Source: Treponema sp. J25 (lineage in GTDB: Bacteria; Spirochaetota; Spirochaetia; Treponematales; Breznakiellaceae). From it: a stretch of DNA of 64,000 bases. Where the stretch lies: positions 9,287 through 73,286 of the forward strand of contig NZ_PTQW01000032.1 of the NCBI RefSeq assembly GCF_004343725.1, written 5' to 3'. A program made the translations under genes and the position numbers. Under the pieces are notes generated by a model. The model worked only from the letters and a program-made list of their open reading frames with translations, did not search any database and had not been told where the DNA came from. The number at the start of each line of letters is the position of its first letter. Positions within the stretch are counted from its first letter, which is position 1. This document shows, one piece after another, positions 2,079-64,000 of this stretch.

Positions 2079-3216
2079 TCTCGTACTCCATCTCTACGAC
2101 CGGAACCTGCCACTGGTGCAGTTCCCTGAGGTTTTCAGCGGTAGCCCCAACGATGTACACCGCAAAGGTACACCCCTTCCGTCGACTGAGAAGCACCAGT
2201 TCCTGAAGCTTTTCTCCCCCAAAAACTCCCACATAGGCCACATGGGCACGATACGGAACCTCCACCAGGGCCCGATGGAACAGGTCCCATCCCTCATCAT
2301 CCTCGGAAATGCGAAGGCTTGCGAGACTATCCAGAATAGGGGTGGCGCTTTCATGGGCCGGGGGAATATAGAGCCGTTCCTCCCGATCAGGCAAAAGACC
2401 ATTCGACACAAGACCAGTCATCTGGCCCGCCATAGTGGCGGTAGACACAAGGGAGGCCCCATAGGAAATAGCCCATTCTGTATACAGATAGCGCTCTTTT
2501 AAAGGGAAAGACGGCCCATAGATATTCAAAATTACCAGAAGGGGGCTATCCATACTTGATTCATATTCGGTGGCGATAAGCTTCCCCACATGGGCGGTAG
2601 ACTTCCAGTTAATCCGACGCAGGTCATCTCCCACCTGGTATTCCCTTAGGGAACGGAAACGACCGGGATCTTCGTGAATCCGAAAGGGGCTGGGAAGTTC
2701 TCCCACCGGAGACCCATCGCCGGGATGGAAAGAGAGGGGCACCATGGCAGGATACACCACCAGATGGCCCCGTTCAGGGCTTTCCACAGTAACACTTTGC
2801 ATACCCAGAAAATCCCGCAATTCTATACGAACCGGTCCAAGTTCCCAGCGCCCCCGCTCTGTTCCCCGAAGGGCATACTGAATAATCCGCTTGCTCTTAG
2901 GAAGGATATCCAGTTTTTGCCGATTCTGACCGTGGGCATCAAAGGTACTAATACCATCGCTTAAGACGGCCGCCAGCATGGGAAACCAGCTTCGGTTCTG
3001 AATCTCTAGCTCGATACGGGCCAACTGGTTCTTATAAATTCGTACTATCGGATCTTTCCGACGGATCCGCAACCCCTGTTCCAGAAAAAACAGATACAGG
3101 AGATTTAAAAAAAGAAGGAAGGCCCCAAAAAGGGCAAGGGTTCGTAAGAGCGAAAGGGGGGCAAAAAAAGCAATAAGAATCAGGAAGAGGATCAATAAAC
3201 GACCCCGGTATTTCAT
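2071..3216 (-). CDS. DUF58 domain protein (MoxR-associated, vWA-like)
   Basis: Carries the hallmark DUF58 motif REYQVGDDLRRINWKSTAH, an N-terminal TM helix, and a 4-nt overlap with the MoxR ATPase gene. Confidence 0.75.
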   Translation of the reverse strand: MKYRGRLLILFLILIAFFAPLSLLRTLALFGAFLLFLNLLYLFFLEQGLRIRRKDPIVRIYKNQLARIELEIQNRSWFPMLAAVLSDGISTFDAHGQNRQKLDILPKSKRIIQYALRGTERGRWELGPVRIELRDFLGMQSVTVESPERGHLVVYPAMVPLSFHPGDGSPVGELPSPFRIHEDPGRFRSLREYQVGDDLRRINWKSTAHVGKLIATEYESSMDSPLLVILNIYGPSFPLKERYLYTEWAISYGASLVSTATMAGQMTGLVSNGLLPDREERLYIPPAHESATPILDSLASLRISEDDEGWDLFHRALVEVPYRAHVAYVGVFGGEKLQELVLLSRRKGCTFAVYIVGATAENLRELHQWQVPVVEMEYENE

Positions 3217-56703: not shown

Positions 56704-56736
56704 TGACAATTGTACTATTGTTATAGTACAATGTCA
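56704..56736. promoter_or_regulatory. Near-perfect 33-bp palindrome TGACAATTGTACTAT-TGT-TATAGTACAATGTCA abutting the GntR gene start; candidate operator
   Basis: Read directly from the sequence. GntR operators are typically (T)GT-N-AC(A)-containing palindromes. Confidence 0.5.
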
Positions 56737-57030
56737 AGACAAAACAGGAAATTTCCCCGTGAAATAGGTGCGAAGCATGTACCGGTTACCGAGAAGCAGG
56801 TGAGGCGAATCATGGTTCGGACCAAATTACAAGCGATTTTCCCAGGTCGGAATCTGTCAAAGGCCCGACAGGAGCATAAAAAGTATCCGTATCTTCTTGC
56901 TGGCAATAAAATACGATATCCGAATCAGGTGTGGGCAACTGATCTGACCTATATCAAGCTGCCTTCGGGTCATGTCTATTTGATGGCAATCATTGTGGAC
57001 CTGCCCCGGTATAGTGGAGAGGTAGTTAAG
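56710..57030 (+). mobile_element. IS3-family transposase OrfB internal fragment (remnant A), truncated at both ends
   Basis: …VTEKQVRRIMVRTKLQAIF…KYPYLLAGNKIRYPNQVWATDLTYIKLPSGHVYLMAIIVD… is a typical IS3 OrfB N-terminal region. It is cut off at ~57026 exactly where the minus-strand copy ends. Confidence 0.7.
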
Positions 57031-57545
57031 CCTCTTTTCGTGCAACCATCGCGGGAGCTTTGTAGCCGTTCCGCGAATACAGCCTGATCCGATTATAGTA
57101 CACCTCGATGTATTCGAACACCGCCGACTTGACGTTCCGGCGGGATTTCCATCCGTCCAGTTCTTCCACTTCCCGTTTCAACGTCTTGAAAAAGGATTCC
57201 GCACAGGCATTGTCCTAGAGTTGCCCTTTCGCGACATGCTCCTGACCAGCATCGGAAGTGCCGCCGTCGAGGCTTCGCAAAATGCCGCCCCGCAGTGCAG
57301 GAAGGTTTGCGGCCGTTCCCTGCGTAGTACCCCGATGCGCTGACGGTAAGAACCTTTGCCATCTTCCCAATCGACCAACGATTCCGGTGGGCGTCCATGA
57401 ACCGAAAACTCATCTCTGTTTTCCGTTCACCGAGAAGATGGCTACCGCTTTTTTTAGTATTTCATTCGCCTCGCGGAGGTCCTCAACCTCGCGTAAGAGT
57501 CTGGTTATACTGAGCCCAGGTTGAAAGACCAAGGACGCGCAAGAA
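57026..57545 (-). mobile_element. IS3-family remnant B (minus strand): OrfA C-terminus, A7G slippery site, and OrfB disrupted by a frameshift and stop
   Basis: Minus-strand translation gives …LREVEDLREANEILKKAVAIFS… across CTAAAAAAAG, and …MDAHRNRWSIGKMAKVLTVSASGYY…ESFFKTLKREVEELDGWKSRRNVKSAVFEYIEVYYNRIRLYSRNGYKAPAMVARKEA* ending at 57026-28, with an internal TAG/frame break near 57215. Confidence 0.7.
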
Positions 57546-57552
57546 CTAAGGT

Positions 57553-58330
57553 GTGAATCGCCTCCTTGAGAGACAGGAGGAAGGAGGCGTAGAATCAGCC
57601 ATGCGCAAGCACTACGACAAAGAGTTCAAGGCCAAAGTAGCCTTGGATGCGGTACGGAGTGAGAAAACGATCCAGGAGATCGCGAAGGCCTTCGCGGTTC
57701 ATCCGAACCTCGTGAGCCTTTGGAAAAGACAGTTGCTCGAGAACGCGGGCAAGCTCTTTGAATAAAGAAGGGAAGGACAAGACAGCGGAAGAGGCCGAGC
57801 GGAAACAGGACCAGCTGTACAGGCAGATCGGTCAGCTCCAGGTGGAGAACGAGTTTCTAAAAAAAAGTACAGGCAACTGTACGGGACCGAGCCCAAGTTG
57901 TAGAGCCGGATGATCCGGAGCTTTCGATTCGGAGACAGTGCGAGCTTCTATCGATCAGCCGGACGGCCTACTACTACAAGCCGAAGAAGGAGGAGGAAAC
58001 CGAGGATCCCGAGCTGGGCATACTGCTCGCGATTCTGGACGAACTGCGGGAGCATCCCTTCTACGGGTACCGGAAGGTCGCCCTGGCGGTTTCGTACCTC
58101 GTGGTAAGCAGGAAACAGGTCCGCAGGATCATGGGAAAGACAGGCTGAGGACTATGTACCCTGGGGAACAGCTGTCCAAGCCGGACCGGAAGCATCCGAA
58201 GTATCCGTACCTGTTGAGGGGAAAGACGATCTGGATGCCCAATCAGGTATGGGCCTCCGAGATGAACCCCAATGAACCGGAGAAACACGGAGGGCCTCTT
58301 TACCCTGGACCGCAGGCTAAAACTGGTGCT
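57553..58330 (+). mobile_element. IS3-family remnant C (plus strand): OrfA with a frameshift, poly-A slippery site, and a 5' part of OrfB with a further frameshift, 3'-truncated
   Basis: MRKHYDKEFKAKVALDAVRSEKTIQEIAKAFAVHPNLVSLWKRQLLENAGKLFE*. The next frame gives …EEAERKQDQLYRQIGQLQVENEFLKKS…, then …RQCELLSISRTAYYYKP…GYRKVALAV…, then …KYPYLLRGKTIWMPNQVWASEM, after which homology is lost. Confidence 0.7.
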
Positions 58331-58344
58331 AACGTAAGGGGGCT

Positions 58345-59085
58345 CTAATCTACTACTTTTTCGTATTCGATGCTGACTATTTGAATGCCCGGCGTAGTGC
58401 AGATTATTTTATAATATTTGCTATAGCCCTTTTCAGCAAAAACAAGACCGAAATATTCCGCATTGGGCTGAAGGTCTACACTATAGAAAAGATTTTTTTC
58501 AAGTACATCGAGCCATTGTTTTCCCCTTTGGGCGTATTGGGAGACTGCCTCGAAATTTCTTTGTCTTGCCAGTTCTGCTGCTGTAGGGTCATAATAACTG
58601 GTTGAGCTGCTGTAGATACCGGAAACAGAACCATATCGAGATCCGCCGTATATGGTTCCGGTAGTGGATGTGTAACCTCTGCCGGCATCTATAGAACTAG
58701 CTACAGCTCCCAGTGCAAGCAGCACTGCCCCTGCGGTATATTCTGCTTTTTCTTTTCTATAATATTCTTCCGATGTATAAACCTTAAGTTTTTTCCAGTT
58801 TACCCTATCGTCGCTTTCATAAACAGAAAAATGGGTATCTGTAAATGAAATTGTTTTTCCTGAATAATTTTTTATTGCAATTTTTATCATTAAATCCTCA
58901 TCAACATAGACAGGATAGATGATCATACCAATATTTTGGTCGGTATAAACAGGGTAGTAAGCAGATCTTTCCTGAATAACCTGAATCTGATCATTTTGAA
59001 TGGGTACAAAATGGTATGTTGCGCATGAAATTACAGAAAGTACCAGTAATAACAAAATGCTCATCCTGCAGTAATGATTTTTCAC
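58345..59085 (-). CDS. Hypothetical lipoprotein, AT-rich gene with a Tyr/Ser/Gly-rich segment
   Basis: Signal sequence plus lipobox-like …LLLVLSVISC; composition visibly lower in GC than its neighbours. It is the second gene of the σ54-promoter-driven unit. Confidence 0.5.
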   Translation of the reverse strand: MKNHYCRMSILLLLVLSVISCATYHFVPIQNDQIQVIQERSAYYPVYTDQNIGMIIYPVYVDEDLMIKIAIKNYSGKTISFTDTHFSVYESDDRVNWKKLKVYTSEEYYRKEKAEYTAGAVLLALGAVASSIDAGRGYTSTTGTIYGGSRYGSVSGIYSSSTSYYDPTAAELARQRNFEAVSQYAQRGKQWLDVLEKNLFYSVDLQPNAEYFGLVFAEKGYSKYYKIICTTPGIQIVSIEYEKVVD

Positions 59086-59100
59086 AAGATTCTCCTTGCT

Positions 59101-59643
59101 TTATTGAATAGCTTCTATGCTCGAATACCAAGGGAAATAACTCTTATATTTGCTAAGGTAATACTCCAGCCCTGTGGTGTTAAAAAAAAGGGTAATGGGA
59201 TCTTGATAAGAAGGGGTACAGCGGACTACGAATCTATCGGCTTTTGCTATTTGTTGTAATAGTTCAGAGATGTCTCCTATGTAAAAGCTTGCTTCCCCAT
59301 CGGTCGAATTAGACCAGAATGTTCTTTGGGCTGGATTATTTCCAACTCTAAAATCAATATATTTACCCCGAAGATTAAAATATTCTATATCACTTCCCAA
59401 AAAGGTATTCCAGATAATAAATAGCTCGATTGTTTCAGAAGTAGCTCGAATTACCAAACGTTCTTTAGTTTTAAAATAATTTTTTGGCCCATCTGCCTCA
59501 AGGATTAAGAATACTTTTGATTCGTCGGTAATTGGGTCCGTTTCTTCATAATCTATCCATTCTGAATCGGGTGGTGGGCTTTGGGCCGGGATAGAAGAAA
59601 GGGAAACCAGCATAGCCACGATCATAACAAATGTTCGTTTCAT
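59101..59643 (-). CDS. Hypothetical secreted protein, AT-rich gene
   Basis: Start set at MKRTFVMIVAMLVSLSSIPAQ, which is preceded by an AGAGGA ribosome-binding site; the ORF-track extension runs to 59787. No family was recognised. Confidence 0.5.
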   Translation of the reverse strand: MKRTFVMIVAMLVSLSSIPAQSPPPDSEWIDYEETDPITDESKVFLILEADGPKNYFKTKERLVIRATSETIELFIIWNTFLGSDIEYFNLRGKYIDFRVGNNPAQRTFWSNSTDGEASFYIGDISELLQQIAKADRFVVRCTPSYQDPITLFFNTTGLEYYLSKYKSYFPWYSSIEAIQ

Positions 59644-59667
59644 ATTTATTCCTCTTTTTTGTGTTAA

Positions 59668-59683
59668 TGCAAATATCATGCCA
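59668..59683 (-). promoter_or_regulatory. σ54-type promoter on the minus strand (TGGCAT-N5-TTGCA, -24 GG / -12 GC) about 25 nt upstream of the 59643 start codon
   Basis: Plus strand reads TGCAAATATCATGCCA, whose reverse complement is TGGCATGATATTTGCA, against the consensus TGGCAC-N5-TTGCW. Spacing to the RBS and ATG is correct. The promoter is divergent from a σ54 enhancer-binding-protein gene. Confidence 0.55.
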
Positions 59684-59758
59684 AGTGTTTTTTGGTGGAA
59701 AGACCCTGGCGGGGTACGTAAAAAGCAGTATTTCATAGCACTAAGGGCCAGGAAAACA

Positions 59759-59794
59759 GTAACGATAGTTTCATAGTTACGGAACAAAAGTTAC
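59759..59794. repeat. 36-nt nested palindrome GTAACGATAGTTTCATAGTTACGGAACAAAAGTTAC (copy 1), ~95-120 bp upstream of the σ54 promoter; candidate enhancer (UAS) or CRISPR-repeat-like element
   Basis: Outer arms GTAAC/GTTAC and inner arms GTT(T/C)C/GGAAC. A second copy lies at 62647-62682 with 28 of 36 positions identical. Confidence 0.55.
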
Positions 59795-59885
59795 GAAGCA
59801 TTATGAAAACTAATCTTATAGGGGTGTCTAAAATAAAAAGAATGGTGGCTGCTGTGGCACCTGTAATTGGCATGTTTTATGCAGA

Positions 59886-61484
59886 TTGTCTGCCATGGAT
59901 TCTCATGATACTATGAAAGATATGGCAAAGACAGTCTCGGTTCTGGTGACCTTTATAGGAAATCGGGATCCCTATCCACAGGATGATGAAACTCCGGGGC
60001 CTATTCTATCCTTTTTATTGCAGCATCCGGTAGATATCGTTTATATGCTTTGCAGCAGCGCTGCCTACCATGAGCGAGCCCAAGATTTAATAAGAGAAGC
60101 TAAAGATGAAGGATTGGTCACCAAATTCGAAACGGTAGATTTTTATGTTCCCGATGTGGTCGATTACGGAATAATCTGGGAACGGTTGCTCATGAGTCTT
60201 ACGGATATACAACAGCGTGTTCATGAACATCTTCCAGTACGGATAAGTGTAGAATGGCTTTTTTTACTGGACTCCGGAACCCCGCAGATGAAATCCTGCC
60301 TTTTTCTTGCTGCCGCGACACAACAATTTCCGGCTCGTCTTTACCAGGGCATTCCGCCAGCCTTCTCCGGTGGAGCCTATAAGAGCCGCCAAGTAAACAT
60401 AGAACCTTTTTCTTTTATGCGGCCTGCATTCATTGTGGAAGGGAAGGTTCCAAATGTATATGAGGCTGATATAGGAGCGAATACAAATACCACTGGGAGT
60501 AATGCTCCCAAATATCGGGAAGCAGAAGAACGGGCATTGCGTATTGCCCGATATGAAGACCCGGTACTGCTTTTAGGCGAGACCGGTACAGGAAAAACCA
60601 GAATAGCCCGTCAGATACATGATGCGAGTCCCCGGAAAAGCGGGCCATTTGTAGAAGTAAATTGTTCAGCTATTCCGCGGGATCTAGCAGAAAGCGAACT
60701 TTTTGGTCATGTCCAGGGAGCCTTTACCGGAGCCAATAAAAATCGAAGCGGCAAAATCCGGGCTGCTCAAGGGGGGACCCTGTTCCTTGACGAAATCGGA
60801 GACCTGCCGCTGGAACTGCAGGTTAAGCTCCTTAAGGTGTTGGAAGAACACACCCTGTATCCAGTTGGCTCCGATGAACCTGTTACGGTTAATGTCCGGC
60901 TTATCGCGGCAACCCACCGGGATTTAGAACACATGGTAAAAGATGGCAGTTTTCGTAAGGACTTGTACCAGCGCCTTAAGGTTGTTGTCATTCGGCTTCC
61001 GCCTCTGCGGGACCGCAAAGAAGATATTTTACCTCTGGCTGACTATTTCCTTGATGAACGGAACCGTAAATATGGGGAACATAAGGAGCTTTCTGAGGCA
61101 GTAAAAAGCCGTTTGCTTGAATACTCGTGGCCCGGAAATGTCCGGGAATTGCGGAATACGATAGACAGCGCCTGTTCCATATCCCAGAAGGAGCTCATCG
61201 AGCTGGATGTATTGCCCGAAGAATTACAAGCTGGCACCTGGAGTAAGTATGGAATGCACGGCGCGTCTGGTGATATGCCGGGGGAGATCCTGCCTCCGGA
61301 AGGCTTGGATCTGCGGGCCCGACTGCTCCAAATGGAATGGAGTTATGTAGCGGCGGCTTTGCGCAGAACCGGAGGTAACCGGGAAGCGGCGGCAAAACTT
61401 TTGGGCATGACTGGTCATGCGTTTCGCAAGGCCCTACGGGAACGGCTTGCCGGTTTTTTCGAAAACGAATGGGAAGGAGAATAA
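59886..61484 (+). CDS. RtcR-family σ54-dependent transcriptional activator: N-terminal CARF domain, σ54-interaction AAA+ domain, C-terminal HTH
   Basis: AAA+ motifs [14 protein letters not shown] loop, …LFLDEIGDL…. The N-terminus (…[10 protein letters not shown]…[28 protein letters not shown]…) aligns in my recall with the E. coli RtcR CARF region (…HITTGTHVAQICWFLLAEARYLPARLIQ…). At 532 aa it matches RtcR in length. The exact start is uncertain (Met at 59886, 59895 or 59922). Confidence 0.8.
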
Positions 61485-61485
61485 G

Positions 61486-62628
61486 ATGCCGGAACGACAG
61501 GTACTCATTTGTACGGTAGGAACCAGTCTTTTTTCTGGGAATCTGGAACGGCTTCCCTTCGAAAGAGACAATCCCCCGAATTGGGAGAACCTTAAAAGGA
61601 CATATCAAGAAAAAAATTGGAGGGCCCTCGCAAGAGAATTAGCGTGCCTTCCGCCAGATAGCCGGGTCTGTGGTGCAGAAATTAATACCATCCACGAACT
61701 TATTACCCAAAAAGGACTTCCTTTGAGGGCCATCCATTTTCTTGTCTCGGATACGCCGGCAGGAGAAGAAACAGGAAAGGTACTTCAATATTACTTTAAA
61801 AATCATTCTTCCCATCATTTTAGTGTCGTAGAATATCACCGAATCGAAAAATTACAGGACCAACATCCTCAGGATTTTAAAGTGTATGGGTTACGTAACC
61901 TGGCCCGGGAAATTGGCACTATCATTCAGCGGATAGGTGGCCCCGAAAAGGTGCTTATCGATGCCACCGGTGGTTACAAGGCCCAAATTGCCATTGGATT
62001 GCTTATCGGCCAGGTGCTCAATATTCCGGTCATGTATAAACATGAACGGTTTTCTCAGATTATCGATTTTCCCCCTTTGCCGGTTTCTTTTGATTACAGC
62101 CTTTTTGGAACCTATGCGGGGCTTTTGCACTATCTTGAAAAAGGTATTGTCACGGTAGATTCGGAAGAACTAGATCTAACCGAAGAGGATGAAAAACTCC
62201 GGGTCCTCCTGGAAGAAACAGATGTGGGGAACAGACGACTTTTTGCCTTAAGCCCCATTGGTCAAATATACCTTCTTGGATACCGATTACACCATCAACG
62301 GGAAGTAACAGAACTGGCTTCAGCTCAAAATAAAGAGGTGCCCCACTTTTCGGATGACCACTATCCCGAAGGTTTTAAGGACTATGTGAAAAAGATTTGG
62401 AGAGAAGTCCCCTGGATTGTAACCATAAAAAGCCTTCCTTATTACCAACAACGGTCCATTAAAGGGAGGGGTTTTACGGTACGAGAAATAGAAGGGCAGC
62501 TTCGACTGGTTGGCACCTATCGGGATAGAAACGACTTCGGAGCCCGCTTTGAGATTATTCCCACCGATACTTCCCGGGAAGCCCTTATATACGCGGTGGA
62601 ACTGTTAAATGAAAGATACGGAGATTAA
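61486..62628 (+). CDS. CARF-domain protein (Csx1/Csm6/Csa3-like sensor domain) with a non-HEPN C-terminal region (wHTH-like segment plus ~100 aa unknown)
   Basis: CARF signatures …VLICTVGTS… and …VLIDATGGYK…. The ATG at 61486 is preceded by a GGAAGGAG ribosome-binding site and begins 1 nt after the activator stop codon. No Rx4-6H motif is present in the C-terminal half. Confidence 0.7.
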   Translation: MPERQVLICTVGTSLFSGNLERLPFERDNPPNWENLKRTYQEKNWRALARELACLPPDSRVCGAEINTIHELITQKGLPLRAIHFLVSDTPAGEETGKVLQYYFKNHSSHHFSVVEYHRIEKLQDQHPQDFKVYGLRNLAREIGTIIQRIGGPEKVLIDATGGYKAQIAIGLLIGQVLNIPVMYKHERFSQIIDFPPLPVSFDYSLFGTYAGLLHYLEKGIVTVDSEELDLTEEDEKLRVLLEETDVGNRRLFALSPIGQIYLLGYRLHHQREVTELASAQNKEVPHFSDDHYPEGFKDYVKKIWREVPWIVTIKSLPYYQQRSIKGRGFTVREIEGQLRLVGTYRDRNDFGARFEIIPTDTSREALIYAVELLNERYGD

Positions 62629-62646: not shown

Positions 62647-62688
62647 GTAACAAAAGTTCCATAACGACGGAACAAAGGTTACTTTTTT
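62647..62688 (+). terminator. Copy 2 of the 36-nt nested palindrome (GTAACAAAAGTTCCATAACGACGGAACAAAGGTTAC) followed by TTTTTT; likely intrinsic terminator and/or protein-binding site
   Basis: Lies 19 nt after the CARF gene stop, with a T-run directly 3' of the stem. Confidence 0.5.
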
Positions 62689-62907: not shown

Positions 62908-62937
62908 TTGACAATTTTTAAATCTCAGAAGTATCAT
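62908..62937 (+). promoter_or_regulatory. Candidate σ70-type promoter upstream of cas6 (TTGACA-18 nt-TATCAT)
   Basis: Sequence match only. The 18-nt spacer and the closeness of the -10 to the AGGAG ribosome-binding site make it uncertain. Confidence 0.3.
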
Positions 62938-62950
62938 AGGAGTAACTATC

Positions 62951-63874
62951 ATGGGCCATCAGCTTACCAGCCTTTCACTCAATTGTACTATCACTTTTCA
63001 GAAAGCCGTTAGAGTAGATACCTATCCACCCTTTGTTATCCGAAGTGTGTTGGGCTACCATCTTAAACGAATGCACTGTGTAAGCCACCAGACCCCCTGT
63101 CAGGACTGCGTTTTCCGGCGCACCTGTGCCTATGTGTTTTTGTTCGAGAGTATTATCGACAAGGATACCCCGGTTTTAGAGGGCCGCGATCGAGCAAGTC
63201 ATCCCTTTAGGCTCATTGCCCACACTGAACCGGGTAGGGAGGCACGGGAACTTCCCTTAACGGTTCAGCTATTTGGTCGAGGGGTGGAATATGTGCCCCA
63301 CGTGGTCTTTGCATTACGGGAAGGAGGGAAAGGGGGACTTTTTCGGGAGCGGGTCCCCTACAAAATCAGCGTGAACAATGTAAAGGGAGAGGCAATTCTT
63401 GAAGGGGACCGGCTCGTGCAGTCCCGTCTGAGCACTGAGCGGTATAGCTATCCGGACGGCGACGAGATGGAAAGCCGAACGCTTCATATTTACTGTCACA
63501 GTCCCCTGCGTTTTAAGGTGAATAATCGCCTAACCAGCGATTTTTCTGGTCGGGACCTGATAGCCGCCACGAGCCGGCATCTGGACACGCTGTTTTTTCT
63601 TTATGGGAATGGCACAGAATTTGCAAAAGAAATACAAAACCAAAAGTGGGAGGGAGAAGTAAAAATAACCCATCGGGACCTGGCATGGCGGGATTACCCG
63701 CGGTTCTCCCGCCGCCAGGGAACTCCGATGAAACTGGGCGGCCACGTGGGACGCCTTACCCTAAGTGGAAGCGCCCCCCGCTGGGTCTGGGAAACCCTGC
63801 ACCTGGCAGGCCGCATCGGCACCGGCAAAAACACAAGCTTCGGCTTTGGCCATATCGAAGTAACGGAGGAGTGA
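62951..63874 (+). CDS. cas6: CRISPR-associated endoribonuclease Cas6
   Basis: Duplicated ferredoxin-like (RAMP) organisation with the C-terminal glycine-rich loop GRIGTGKNTSFGFGHIE characteristic of Cas6; length 307 aa. Confidence 0.7.
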   Translation: MGHQLTSLSLNCTITFQKAVRVDTYPPFVIRSVLGYHLKRMHCVSHQTPCQDCVFRRTCAYVFLFESIIDKDTPVLEGRDRASHPFRLIAHTEPGREARELPLTVQLFGRGVEYVPHVVFALREGGKGGLFRERVPYKISVNNVKGEAILEGDRLVQSRLSTERYSYPDGDEMESRTLHIYCHSPLRFKVNNRLTSDFSGRDLIAATSRHLDTLFFLYGNGTEFAKEIQNQKWEGEVKITHRDLAWRDYPRFSRRQGTPMKLGGHVGRLTLSGSAPRWVWETLHLAGRIGTGKNTSFGFGHIEVTEE

Positions 63875-63881
63875 GGGGAAG

Positions 63882-63995
63882 ATGGAATTTTATATTGAAC
63901 GTTATAAAAACAGAGAAGAACTTGTATTTGATTGTGAAGTCATTACACCAATGTTTTTATCCGGTGCGGACCCTAAAACATATAATGAGCCCTAG
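63882..63995 (+). CDS. Start of a RAMP-superfamily (Cmr1/Cas7-like) gene; very AT-rich and terminated by an in-frame TAG after 37 codons within the window (fragment or pseudogene?)
   Basis: MEFYIERYKNREELVFDCEVITPMFLSGADPKTYNEP*. The motif ITP-F-GGADP resembles RAMP N-terminal motifs. The window ends at 64000. Confidence 0.3.
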   Translation: MEFYIERYKNREELVFDCEVITPMFLSGADPKTYNEP

Positions 63996-64000
63996 AAACT

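Follow-up and report, generated by a model that had tools for sequence, protein, structure and literature searches.

We read the site at 59668..59683, on the minus strand of the 64-kb stretch of DNA that was analyzed here (the window), as a working sigma-54 promoter that would be activated from a shared enhancer by the adjacent sigma-54 activator (bEBP), with the same activator also driving its own operon; we put the probability of this reading at about 0.8. The first-pass annotation, which had flagged the site, overlooked a further promoter, which would be autoregulatory, and the enhancer shared by the two, as well as the activator's CARF domain and its type III CRISPR-Cas setting. In its mechanism the promoter is of the ordinary sigma-54 type, and we infer from its sequence that transcription of the two genes behind it (T1 and T2) depends on sigma-54 in vivo.

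Probable divergent promoters and a candidate shared enhancer

Around the flagged site the minus strand of 59300-60200 reads CACTTGGCATGATATTTGCATTAACACAAAAAAGAGGAATAAATATGAAACGA, and the motif itself, TGGCATGATATTTGCA (59683 to 59668), falls inside the interval first reported, 59656-59690. The GG doublet lies at 59682-59681 and the GC doublet at 59670-59669, 10 bp apart, which is the canonical -24/-12 spacing that had been claimed. Because the C of the GC is taken as position -12, the start site of the T1-T2 operon is predicted at ~59657. The ATG of T1 (59643) is found 24 nt downstream of the motif, preceded by the Shine-Dalgarno sequence AGAGGA (59655-59650) as described in the first-pass annotation, and therefore the predicted leader (59644..59657, minus strand) would be only ~14 nt long with the ribosome-binding site still inside it. 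A 14-nt leader is unusually short: relatives have T1 leaders of 70-126 nt, and ~92 nt that are present in the related locus L005 are absent from the window.

The motif exceeds chance expectation in the counts that we made in the 64-kb window. The pattern TGGCAYN5TTGCW has 2 matches, where 0.07 are expected; when W is allowed as the first -12 base, the count rises to 3 (0.13 expected), a number that was not attained in any of 100 shuffles. When sites were ranked by a graded score with the GG and GC fixed, the three best in the window were those at 59668, 59868 and 63610, and all three are less than 4 kb from the sole GAFTGA-bearing bEBP ORF.

The second of these sites emerged from an inverted-repeat search. 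The motif TGGCATGTTTTATGCA (59868..59883, plus strand) mirrors the flagged one and lies just upstream of the bEBP gene, which it faces, with a predicted start at ~59894; a sigma-54 promoter in this position implies positive autoregulation. The sequence between the two promoters, GTAACGATAGTTTCATAGTTACGGAACAAAAGTTACG, includes an island at 59759..59795 that is conserved in the alignment of the window with L005 and that we regard as a candidate enhancer (UAS). Its core (59781-59794) is the palindrome GGAAC-AAAA-GTTAC, and extra GTAAC/GTTAC half-sites are present at 59759-63 and 59776-80. The core is ~130 bp upstream of the predicted T1 start and ~106 bp upstream of the predicted bEBP start, distances within the ~80-150 bp that are typical of enhancers for sigma-54 activators. 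Upstream regions of 10 loci contain the pattern G[TG]AAC-AAAA-G[TG]TAC, which is 27-fold denser there than elsewhere. In the related locus L071 the enhancer is GGAAC-TTTA-GTTAC, with the half-sites retained and the spacer altered; it follows that the half-sites, and not the spacer, are the conserved part of the UAS. We did not adopt the strict pattern with the AAAA spacer, which misses L071, nor enhancer models based on TACG-N-TACG direct repeats, which are present in few loci only. As it reads, the arrangement is that of a divergent promoter pair with a common palindromic enhancer, GGAAC-N4-GTTAC, which would be the binding site of the bEBP.

To place these elements in a wider context we scanned species-representative genomes with an alignment of the CARF domain of the activator, which yielded 58 loci, all but two of them apparently from Spirochaetota; further loci came from exact-protein look-ups (L numbers denote individual loci). 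A motif was counted if the GG and GC were fixed and at least 10 of the 12 consensus positions matched, and the upstream zone was defined as the 800 bp before the bEBP gene. By this measure the 49 kb of upstream sequence of the bEBP homologues has 78 sigma-54 motifs and the other 743 kb has 56. The upstream density is 21-fold higher, and this enrichment, across 54 loci, supports the first-pass claim of a promoter divergent from, and dependent on, the bEBP. Those 54 are the non-redundant loci with enough upstream sequence; the divergent motif is found in 30 of them, the bEBP-facing motif (counted within 200 nt of the bEBP start and typically at -36 to -108) in 28, and both motifs in 20. The T1-side promoter is kept in place in L005 (TGGCATGAAAATTGCT), L071 (TGGCATGATATTTGCT), L006/L010, L027, L031 and ~25 other loci. 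In the spacer alignment of the window and L005, whose bEBP is 85% identical, conservation is confined to islands, namely the two promoters and the UAS block, outside which the sequence has diverged or contains indels. L071, in which T1 is 53% identical, agrees in that TGGCATGATATTTGCT precedes T1. Even a T1-like/T2 pair that has no bEBP within 8 kb, in L068, has an exact motif, TGGCACACAATCTGCA, 77 nt before the ATG.

Two of these loci have further features of note. The gene set of L068 (7397-9867) consists of T1-like (171 aa), T2 (250 aa) and 345-aa coiled-coil genes with their own sigma-54 motif, and is situated directly upstream of a BREX system (BrxA, BrxB, BrxC, Fic, PglX). In L070, the exact sigma-54 motifs TGGCACACAACCTGCA and TGGCACACAACCTGCT are present on opposite strands, 15 nt apart (2982-3027), just downstream of a T2 homologue at the contig end.

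The conservation of the site is the reason that we reject the alternative in which TGGCATGATATTTGCA matches the consensus by chance, within an AT-rich spacer, and transcription of T1-T2 starts from an unrecognised promoter of the sigma-70 type. Its position and strand are kept at bEBP identities of 41-85% while the surrounding spacer diverges, and only 0.07 such matches would be expected per window. The just 14 nt that would remain for the T1 leader speak for a chance match, as does the consideration that spirochaete sigma-70 promoters may elude a simple consensus scan; yet our scan of the minus strand of the intergenic spacer gave no sigma-70-like site facing T1. We judge this alternative to be very improbable.

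The activator and its CARF domain

The bEBP gene (59913..61484, plus strand) encodes a CARF-AAA+(sigma-54 activator)-HTH_8 protein, as recognized from Pfam, PADLOC and a fold model. Its start may be 59913 or 59922 (the Met conserved in the family), and gene finders also give 59895; from the -24 element of the flagged promoter to the conserved start is ~230 nt, rather than the 200 bp first reported. Pfam identifies Sigma54_activat (PF00158, 1.3e-66), AAA_lid_14 (PF25601) and HTH_8 (PF02954), and the translation shows the GAFTGA loop and LFLDEIG, so that the AAA+ domain with its GAFTGA loop and Walker A/B motifs and the C-terminal HTH, by which a bEBP is recognized, are in place. One GAFTGA-bearing ORF was found in the window, in agreement with the claim that the window encodes a single bEBP; the window contains no rpoN gene. 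The PADLOC model RtcR_PspF2--CARF_AAA_HTH (PDLC01995) matches over the full length (E 4.6e-121, residues 9-507 against profile positions 2-474 of 481), and the protein is a member of this RtcR_PspF2 CARF_AAA_HTH family.

The first-pass annotation had also compared the locus to rtcR/rtcBA. The comparison goes further than was claimed, for the bEBP is homologous to E. coli RtcR (36% identity over 335 aa, last CARF strand included) as well as encoded divergently from its putative targets; it does not extend to orthology or to the targets. The NCBIfam RtcR model (NF038308) aligns to residues 60-513 of the bEBP with 358.6 bits against a cut-off of 650, and domain searches of T1 and T2 found no RtcA or RtcB domains. 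We therefore rejected an assignment to RtcR proper, on the grounds of the score below the cut-off, the absence of rtcBA targets and a different CARF motif.

The sensor domain was examined with a profile built from the N-terminal 200 residues of 20 family members. Searched against the PDB, the profile matched the CARF domain of Csm6' (E 0.0027), with both CARF motifs aligned. An AlphaFold (AF2) model of the domain, predicted from the family alignment with a pLDDT of 84.5, has a six-stranded Rossmann-like pattern, and all 46 of its Foldseek matches in the PDB at E <= 0.001 are CARF proteins: the best are cA6-bound Csm6 (6tug, 3e-8) and Csm6', followed by Cam1, Cad1, Crn1, Csa3, Csx1, Can2 and Card1. 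Strand 1 is followed by a polar motif, FxGxxDP, and strand 4 by SGTPQMK, which is of the [ST]xxx[KR] type and aligns with SATPQIK of Csm6'; T129 and K133 are invariant in the 20 sequences, and the motif is the same in CRISPR-linked and unlinked members. E. coli RtcR (NC_000913.3) reads TGTHVAQ at this position, with Q in place of K. Makarova et al. 2014 (PMC4012209) observed that the basic residue is mostly missing from RtcR-family CARFs, the ligand of which may be a different one. The CARF domain of the bEBP is homologous to that of RtcR, yet, as modeled, it looks closer to a conventional nucleotide-binding CARF.

Putative target genes and the type III CRISPR-Cas setting

The product of T1 (59101..59643, minus strand) is a 180-aa secreted protein that has a signal peptide and, by remote similarity, a VasI-like (PF11319) domain, and T2 (58345..59085, minus strand) encodes a 246-aa lipoprotein with a DUF4352/MPT63-like beta-sandwich, into which a hydrophobic helical hairpin and a Gly/Ser/Tyr-rich hairpin are inserted. 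The N-termini, MKRTFVMIVAMLVSLSSIPAQS and ...LLVLSVISC, show the signal peptide and the lipobox, as expected from the first-pass description of secreted and lipoprotein products, and the low GC content ascribed to these genes is likewise evident (0.34-0.42 over 58400-59800 against 0.50-0.57 in the flanks). The same 180-aa T1 gene is called in four assemblies by exact look-up; exact look-ups of the window's cas6 and APE2256 products returned no match. Neither T1 nor T2 had a significant match in Pfam, NCBIfam or PADLOC. Close homologues of T1 form four clusters only, and an exhaustive search returned 1021 remote homologues; Pfam VasI was matched by 5 of the 10 remote homologues that were scanned. 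T2 has 15 homologue clusters, in which the lipobox cysteine (Cys21) is invariant. Judging from localisation and fold, T1 and T2 may act in envelope remodelling, infection exclusion or membrane damage.

On the 3' side of T2 there is no convincing intrinsic terminator (folding z-score 0.15), and no Rfam family was found in 56-64 kb. Fragments of IS3-type transposases (HTH_Tnp_1 and rve pieces, on both strands) occupy 56710-58340, directly downstream of T2, and separate the low-GC cassette from a cluster of GntR, SPFH-Band7 and ABC transporter genes.

Elsewhere in the family, the targets include a Borrelia-P13-like membrane protein with a small lipoprotein, PEGA-like lipoproteins and a WYL-domain protein, and in L031 the divergent promoter faces an operon of cas6-cad1-nudix-cas10-csm2-RAMPs (csm2-5). 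In the non-CRISPR loci, the Pfam families that recur in the 132 neighbouring ORFs are WYL (9), UvrD-like helicase (6), P13 (5), BrxA (2) and PEGA (2). The targets share a theme, that of small envelope or WYL proteins in defence-island settings. In many non-CRISPR members (L009, L013, L016, L043-L055, L064 and L065), the divergent target is a WYL-domain protein of 330-460 aa, and in the same loci a gene for a large UvrD/SF1-type helicase comes after the bEBP gene; the combination of CARF-bEBP, WYL protein and helicase is a recurrent module of the non-CRISPR loci.

In the window the bEBP gene is followed by a gene for a CARF7-DUF2103 protein of the Cas_APE2256 family (61486..62628, plus strand; Pfam Cas_APE2256 1.6e-32, PADLOC CARF7--CARF_DUF2103 5.5e-97, PDB 8phb 'APE2256 family' 3.6e-7). 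The two genes are translationally coupled, with the bEBP stop at 61484 and the next ATG at 61486. Next are cas6 (62951..63874, plus strand; Pfam CRISPR_Cas6, PADLOC Cas6 2.2e-64), with a sigma-70-like TTGACA-N18-TATCAT ahead of it (~62909-62944) in the APE2256-cas6 spacer, which is low in GC, and the 5' end of a cmr1-like RAMP gene (63882..63977, plus strand), the first 32 aa of which are identical to the Cmr1 of L006 and mark a type III effector module. By this gene order, the promoter pair borders a type III CRISPR-Cas locus. The window, which contains no CRISPR array, ends before cas10; the Cas10/Cmr2 proteins of L071, L031 and L006 have GGDD, and in sister contigs cas10 is found at the position of the window's cmr1 start.

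The junction behind cas6 deserves a comment of its own. Positions 63850-64000 of the window and 15949-16100 of L006 are 93% identical in nucleotide sequence over the 32 shared Cmr1 residues, after which they diverge, with a stop at 63993, and in the near-identical sister L001 (1100-1460; cas6 94% identical) cas10/csm1 starts at exactly the same junction. The conserved 3' end of cas6 looks like a swap point for effector modules, or else the window is rearranged or chimeric there.

Linkage of the bEBP to type III systems has arisen independently in three or four lineages. They comprise the Csm-type loci (window, L005 and L071), the Cmr loci with Cad1 (L006/L010) and L031. About 45 of the 54 family loci are not beside cas genes (for most there is none within 10 kb), and their neighbours are WYL proteins, UvrD-like helicases, P13/PEGA envelope proteins and BREX; the CRISPR link is thus a minority context, and an association of the family as a whole with type III loci is not seen. 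A Cad1-like CARF-adenosine deaminase gene (PADLOC CARF5--CARF_ADA 7e-161) lies beside the bEBP gene in L006/L007/L008/L010 and in L031, that is, in two independent type III lineages, and in L031 a NUDIX gene comes after it.

The third of the high-scoring motifs in the window, TGGCACAGAATTTGCA (63610..63625, plus strand), lies inside cas6, ~260 nt before the next cas gene, where it might serve the type III effector genes as an internal promoter. L005 and L071 carry a motif in the same position, within a loop that varies among Cas6 proteins, although codon changes (N->D and F->I) have occurred there; the conservation extends over three related sequences. In L006/L010 a sigma-54 motif is found 180 nt before cas6 instead. 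A scan with a UAS-like pattern gave 5 matches in the window, with 1.35 expected, and 3 of the 5 are in the bEBP-CRISPR locus; two of the sites, GTAACAAAAGTTCC and GGAACAAAGGTTAC, are located 22 bp apart in the APE2256-cas6 spacer (62647..62682) and are absent from L005. We regard these observations as suggestive of sigma-54 control of cas genes.

A proposed circuit, its ligand and its relatives

We propose that the CARF domain probably keeps the AAA+ ring inactive until a ligand is bound, by analogy with RtcR, which is constitutively active once its CARF domain is deleted (PMC9650030). A bEBP hexamer bound at the enhancer would then use ATP to open both sigma-54 closed complexes. One promoter arm would express T1 and T2, and the other would drive the activator operon, comprising the CARF-AAA+-HTH bEBP and the CARF7-DUF2103 protein; the outcome would be a self-amplifying burst of activator together with the two envelope proteins. 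Because related loci have the same kind of promoter before type III cas genes, the activator may also raise CRISPR expression.

As the ligand we put forward cyclic oligoadenylate (cOA), made by Cas10 upon detection of invader RNA, because the locus is a type III locus and because the CARF domain resembles cA6/cA4-binding CARFs and keeps the Thr/Lys motif. The neighbouring cOA sensors (CARF7 and, in relatives, Cad1), the GGDD-intact Cas10 of relatives, the structural neighbours and the retained Lys all favour this identification, which we nevertheless offer tentatively and at clearly less than even odds. In its full form the proposal is that RtcR_PspF2 is a cyclic-oligoadenylate receptor that turns type III target recognition into a self-amplifying sigma-54 programme; this programme would induce envelope proteins by which infection is blocked or aborted, and in some lineages it would also induce the cas operon of the type III system. 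The envelope proteins would be the VasI-like, DUF4352-like and P13-like proteins or PEGA lipoproteins. Taken as a whole, this scheme is doubtful.

It has to be weighed against a reading in which the promoter pair and the bEBP are real and the CARF domain senses something other than cOA, such as damaged RNA ends, a protein partner or another infection or stress signal. We consider this a substantial possibility, if somewhat short of an even chance. The damaged RNA ends would, as for RtcR, be tRNA fragments with 2',3'-cyclic phosphates, and the whole would be a general, phage-shock-like module for envelope or defence stress, which is sometimes found in CRISPR loci because defence genes cluster. 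That most homologous loci have no cas genes and lie beside WYL, UvrD-like helicase, BREX or envelope genes favours such a more general signal, and RtcR-like CARF-NtrC proteins outside rtc and CRISPR loci had already been noted (PMC4012209). E. coli RtcR is not activated by oligoadenylates (PMC9650030) and is controlled via RtcAB and tRNA halves (PMC9650030, PMC7790460), and no difference in CARF motif separates the CRISPR-linked members of the family from the unlinked ones. A general signal is harder to reconcile with the linkage to different type III subtypes in three or four lineages, always beside a cOA sensor (CARF7 or Cad1), with the nearest folds being cA6/cA4-bound CARFs, and with the invariance in the bEBP family of the Lys that is missing in RtcR; moreover, a type III system elsewhere in the genome could still serve the unlinked loci. 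In a further reading, which we think unlikely, the bEBP serves mainly to control the type III cas genes, and T1-T2 are a lineage-specific add-on. This reading draws on the whole csm operon faced by the divergent promoter of L031, on the sigma-54 motifs just upstream of cas10/cmr (window, L005 and L071) and of cas6 (L006/L010), and on the UAS-like sites before cas6 in the window. Most loci, however, are without cas genes, the common targets are envelope-protein or WYL genes, the window's cas6 has its own sigma-70-like promoter, and the motif inside cas6 could be tolerated coding sequence.

Several known systems resemble parts of the circuit. In rtcR/rtcBA of E. coli and Salmonella, as here, the activator is divergent from its target operon across a spacer of ~200-270 bp, the target promoter is of the -24/-12 type (in E. 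coli TGGCACGACGGTTGCA, ~45 nt before rtcB), and the CARF-AAA+-HTH architecture is homologous. The differences are that rtcBA encodes RNA repair enzymes and the window's targets are envelope proteins; that the window's activator has a sigma-54 promoter of its own and is encoded among type III CRISPR genes; and that K133 is found after strand 4 of its CARF domain where RtcR has Q, alongside the NCBIfam RtcR score below the cut-off. Csa3, a CARF-wHTH protein that binds cA4, also links a CARF sensor to transcription in a CRISPR context and is a structural neighbour (6wxq, 2wte), whereas it is a simple DNA-binding regulator of the sigma-70/archaeal type, linked to type I-A, and the window's bEBP would act via an ATP-driven AAA+ ring and sigma-54. 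PspF and the psp genes provide another case of a sigma-54 bEBP driving envelope-stress proteins, and the family name RtcR_PspF reflects similarity in the AAA+ domain; PspF, though, is without a sensor domain, is held off by PspA and has unrelated targets. Finally, Cam1 and Cad1, cOA-activated type III effectors that act on the envelope or on nucleotide pools, are CARF sensors too, with Cad1 encoded beside the bEBP in L006 and L031, and here as well the outcome may be perturbation of the membrane or envelope. They are direct effectors, whereas the window's CARF protein would work indirectly, through the induction of genes.

Both the rtcR/rtcBA topology and RtcR_PspF2 as a catalogued family are already known; the family to which the window's bEBP belongs is represented in the CARF census (PADLOC-DB), and we know it through its catalogue entry and model name. 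In the literature that we searched, the 2020 CARF census aside, no promoter, enhancer, target or ligand is described for RtcR_PspF2, and full-text searches on CARF with sigma-54, bEBP, PspF, Cas10 or cOA returned only work on RtcR and the 2014 census. A 2025 classification of CRISPR systems lists 'transcriptional regulators' among the cOA effectors and mentions neither RtcR nor sigma factors. What is new is an unstudied circuit, as read from its sequence, around a CARF-bEBP, with a candidate enhancer, predicted autoregulation, putative envelope targets and a recurrent type III CRISPR link.

The locus presents a complete, testable circuit, consisting of sensor domain, enhancer, two promoters and targets, for a CARF family that has been catalogued and not studied, and the conserved promoter and enhancer could be used directly as a reporter in ligand screens. 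In the absence of their activator, sigma-54 promoters give no transcription, which makes them fitting for genes that do harm when they are not needed. If the ligand is cOA made by the CRISPR system, bacterial type III immunity would gain a transcriptional output that is self-feeding and alters the envelope, a gene-expression arm of CRISPR signalling that is distinct from the direct nuclease, deaminase and membrane effectors. If the ligand is another, the module would still be a compact infection- or stress-inducible switch that is common in the defence islands of Spirochaetota, and one that offers a handle on RtcR-like CARF sensing.
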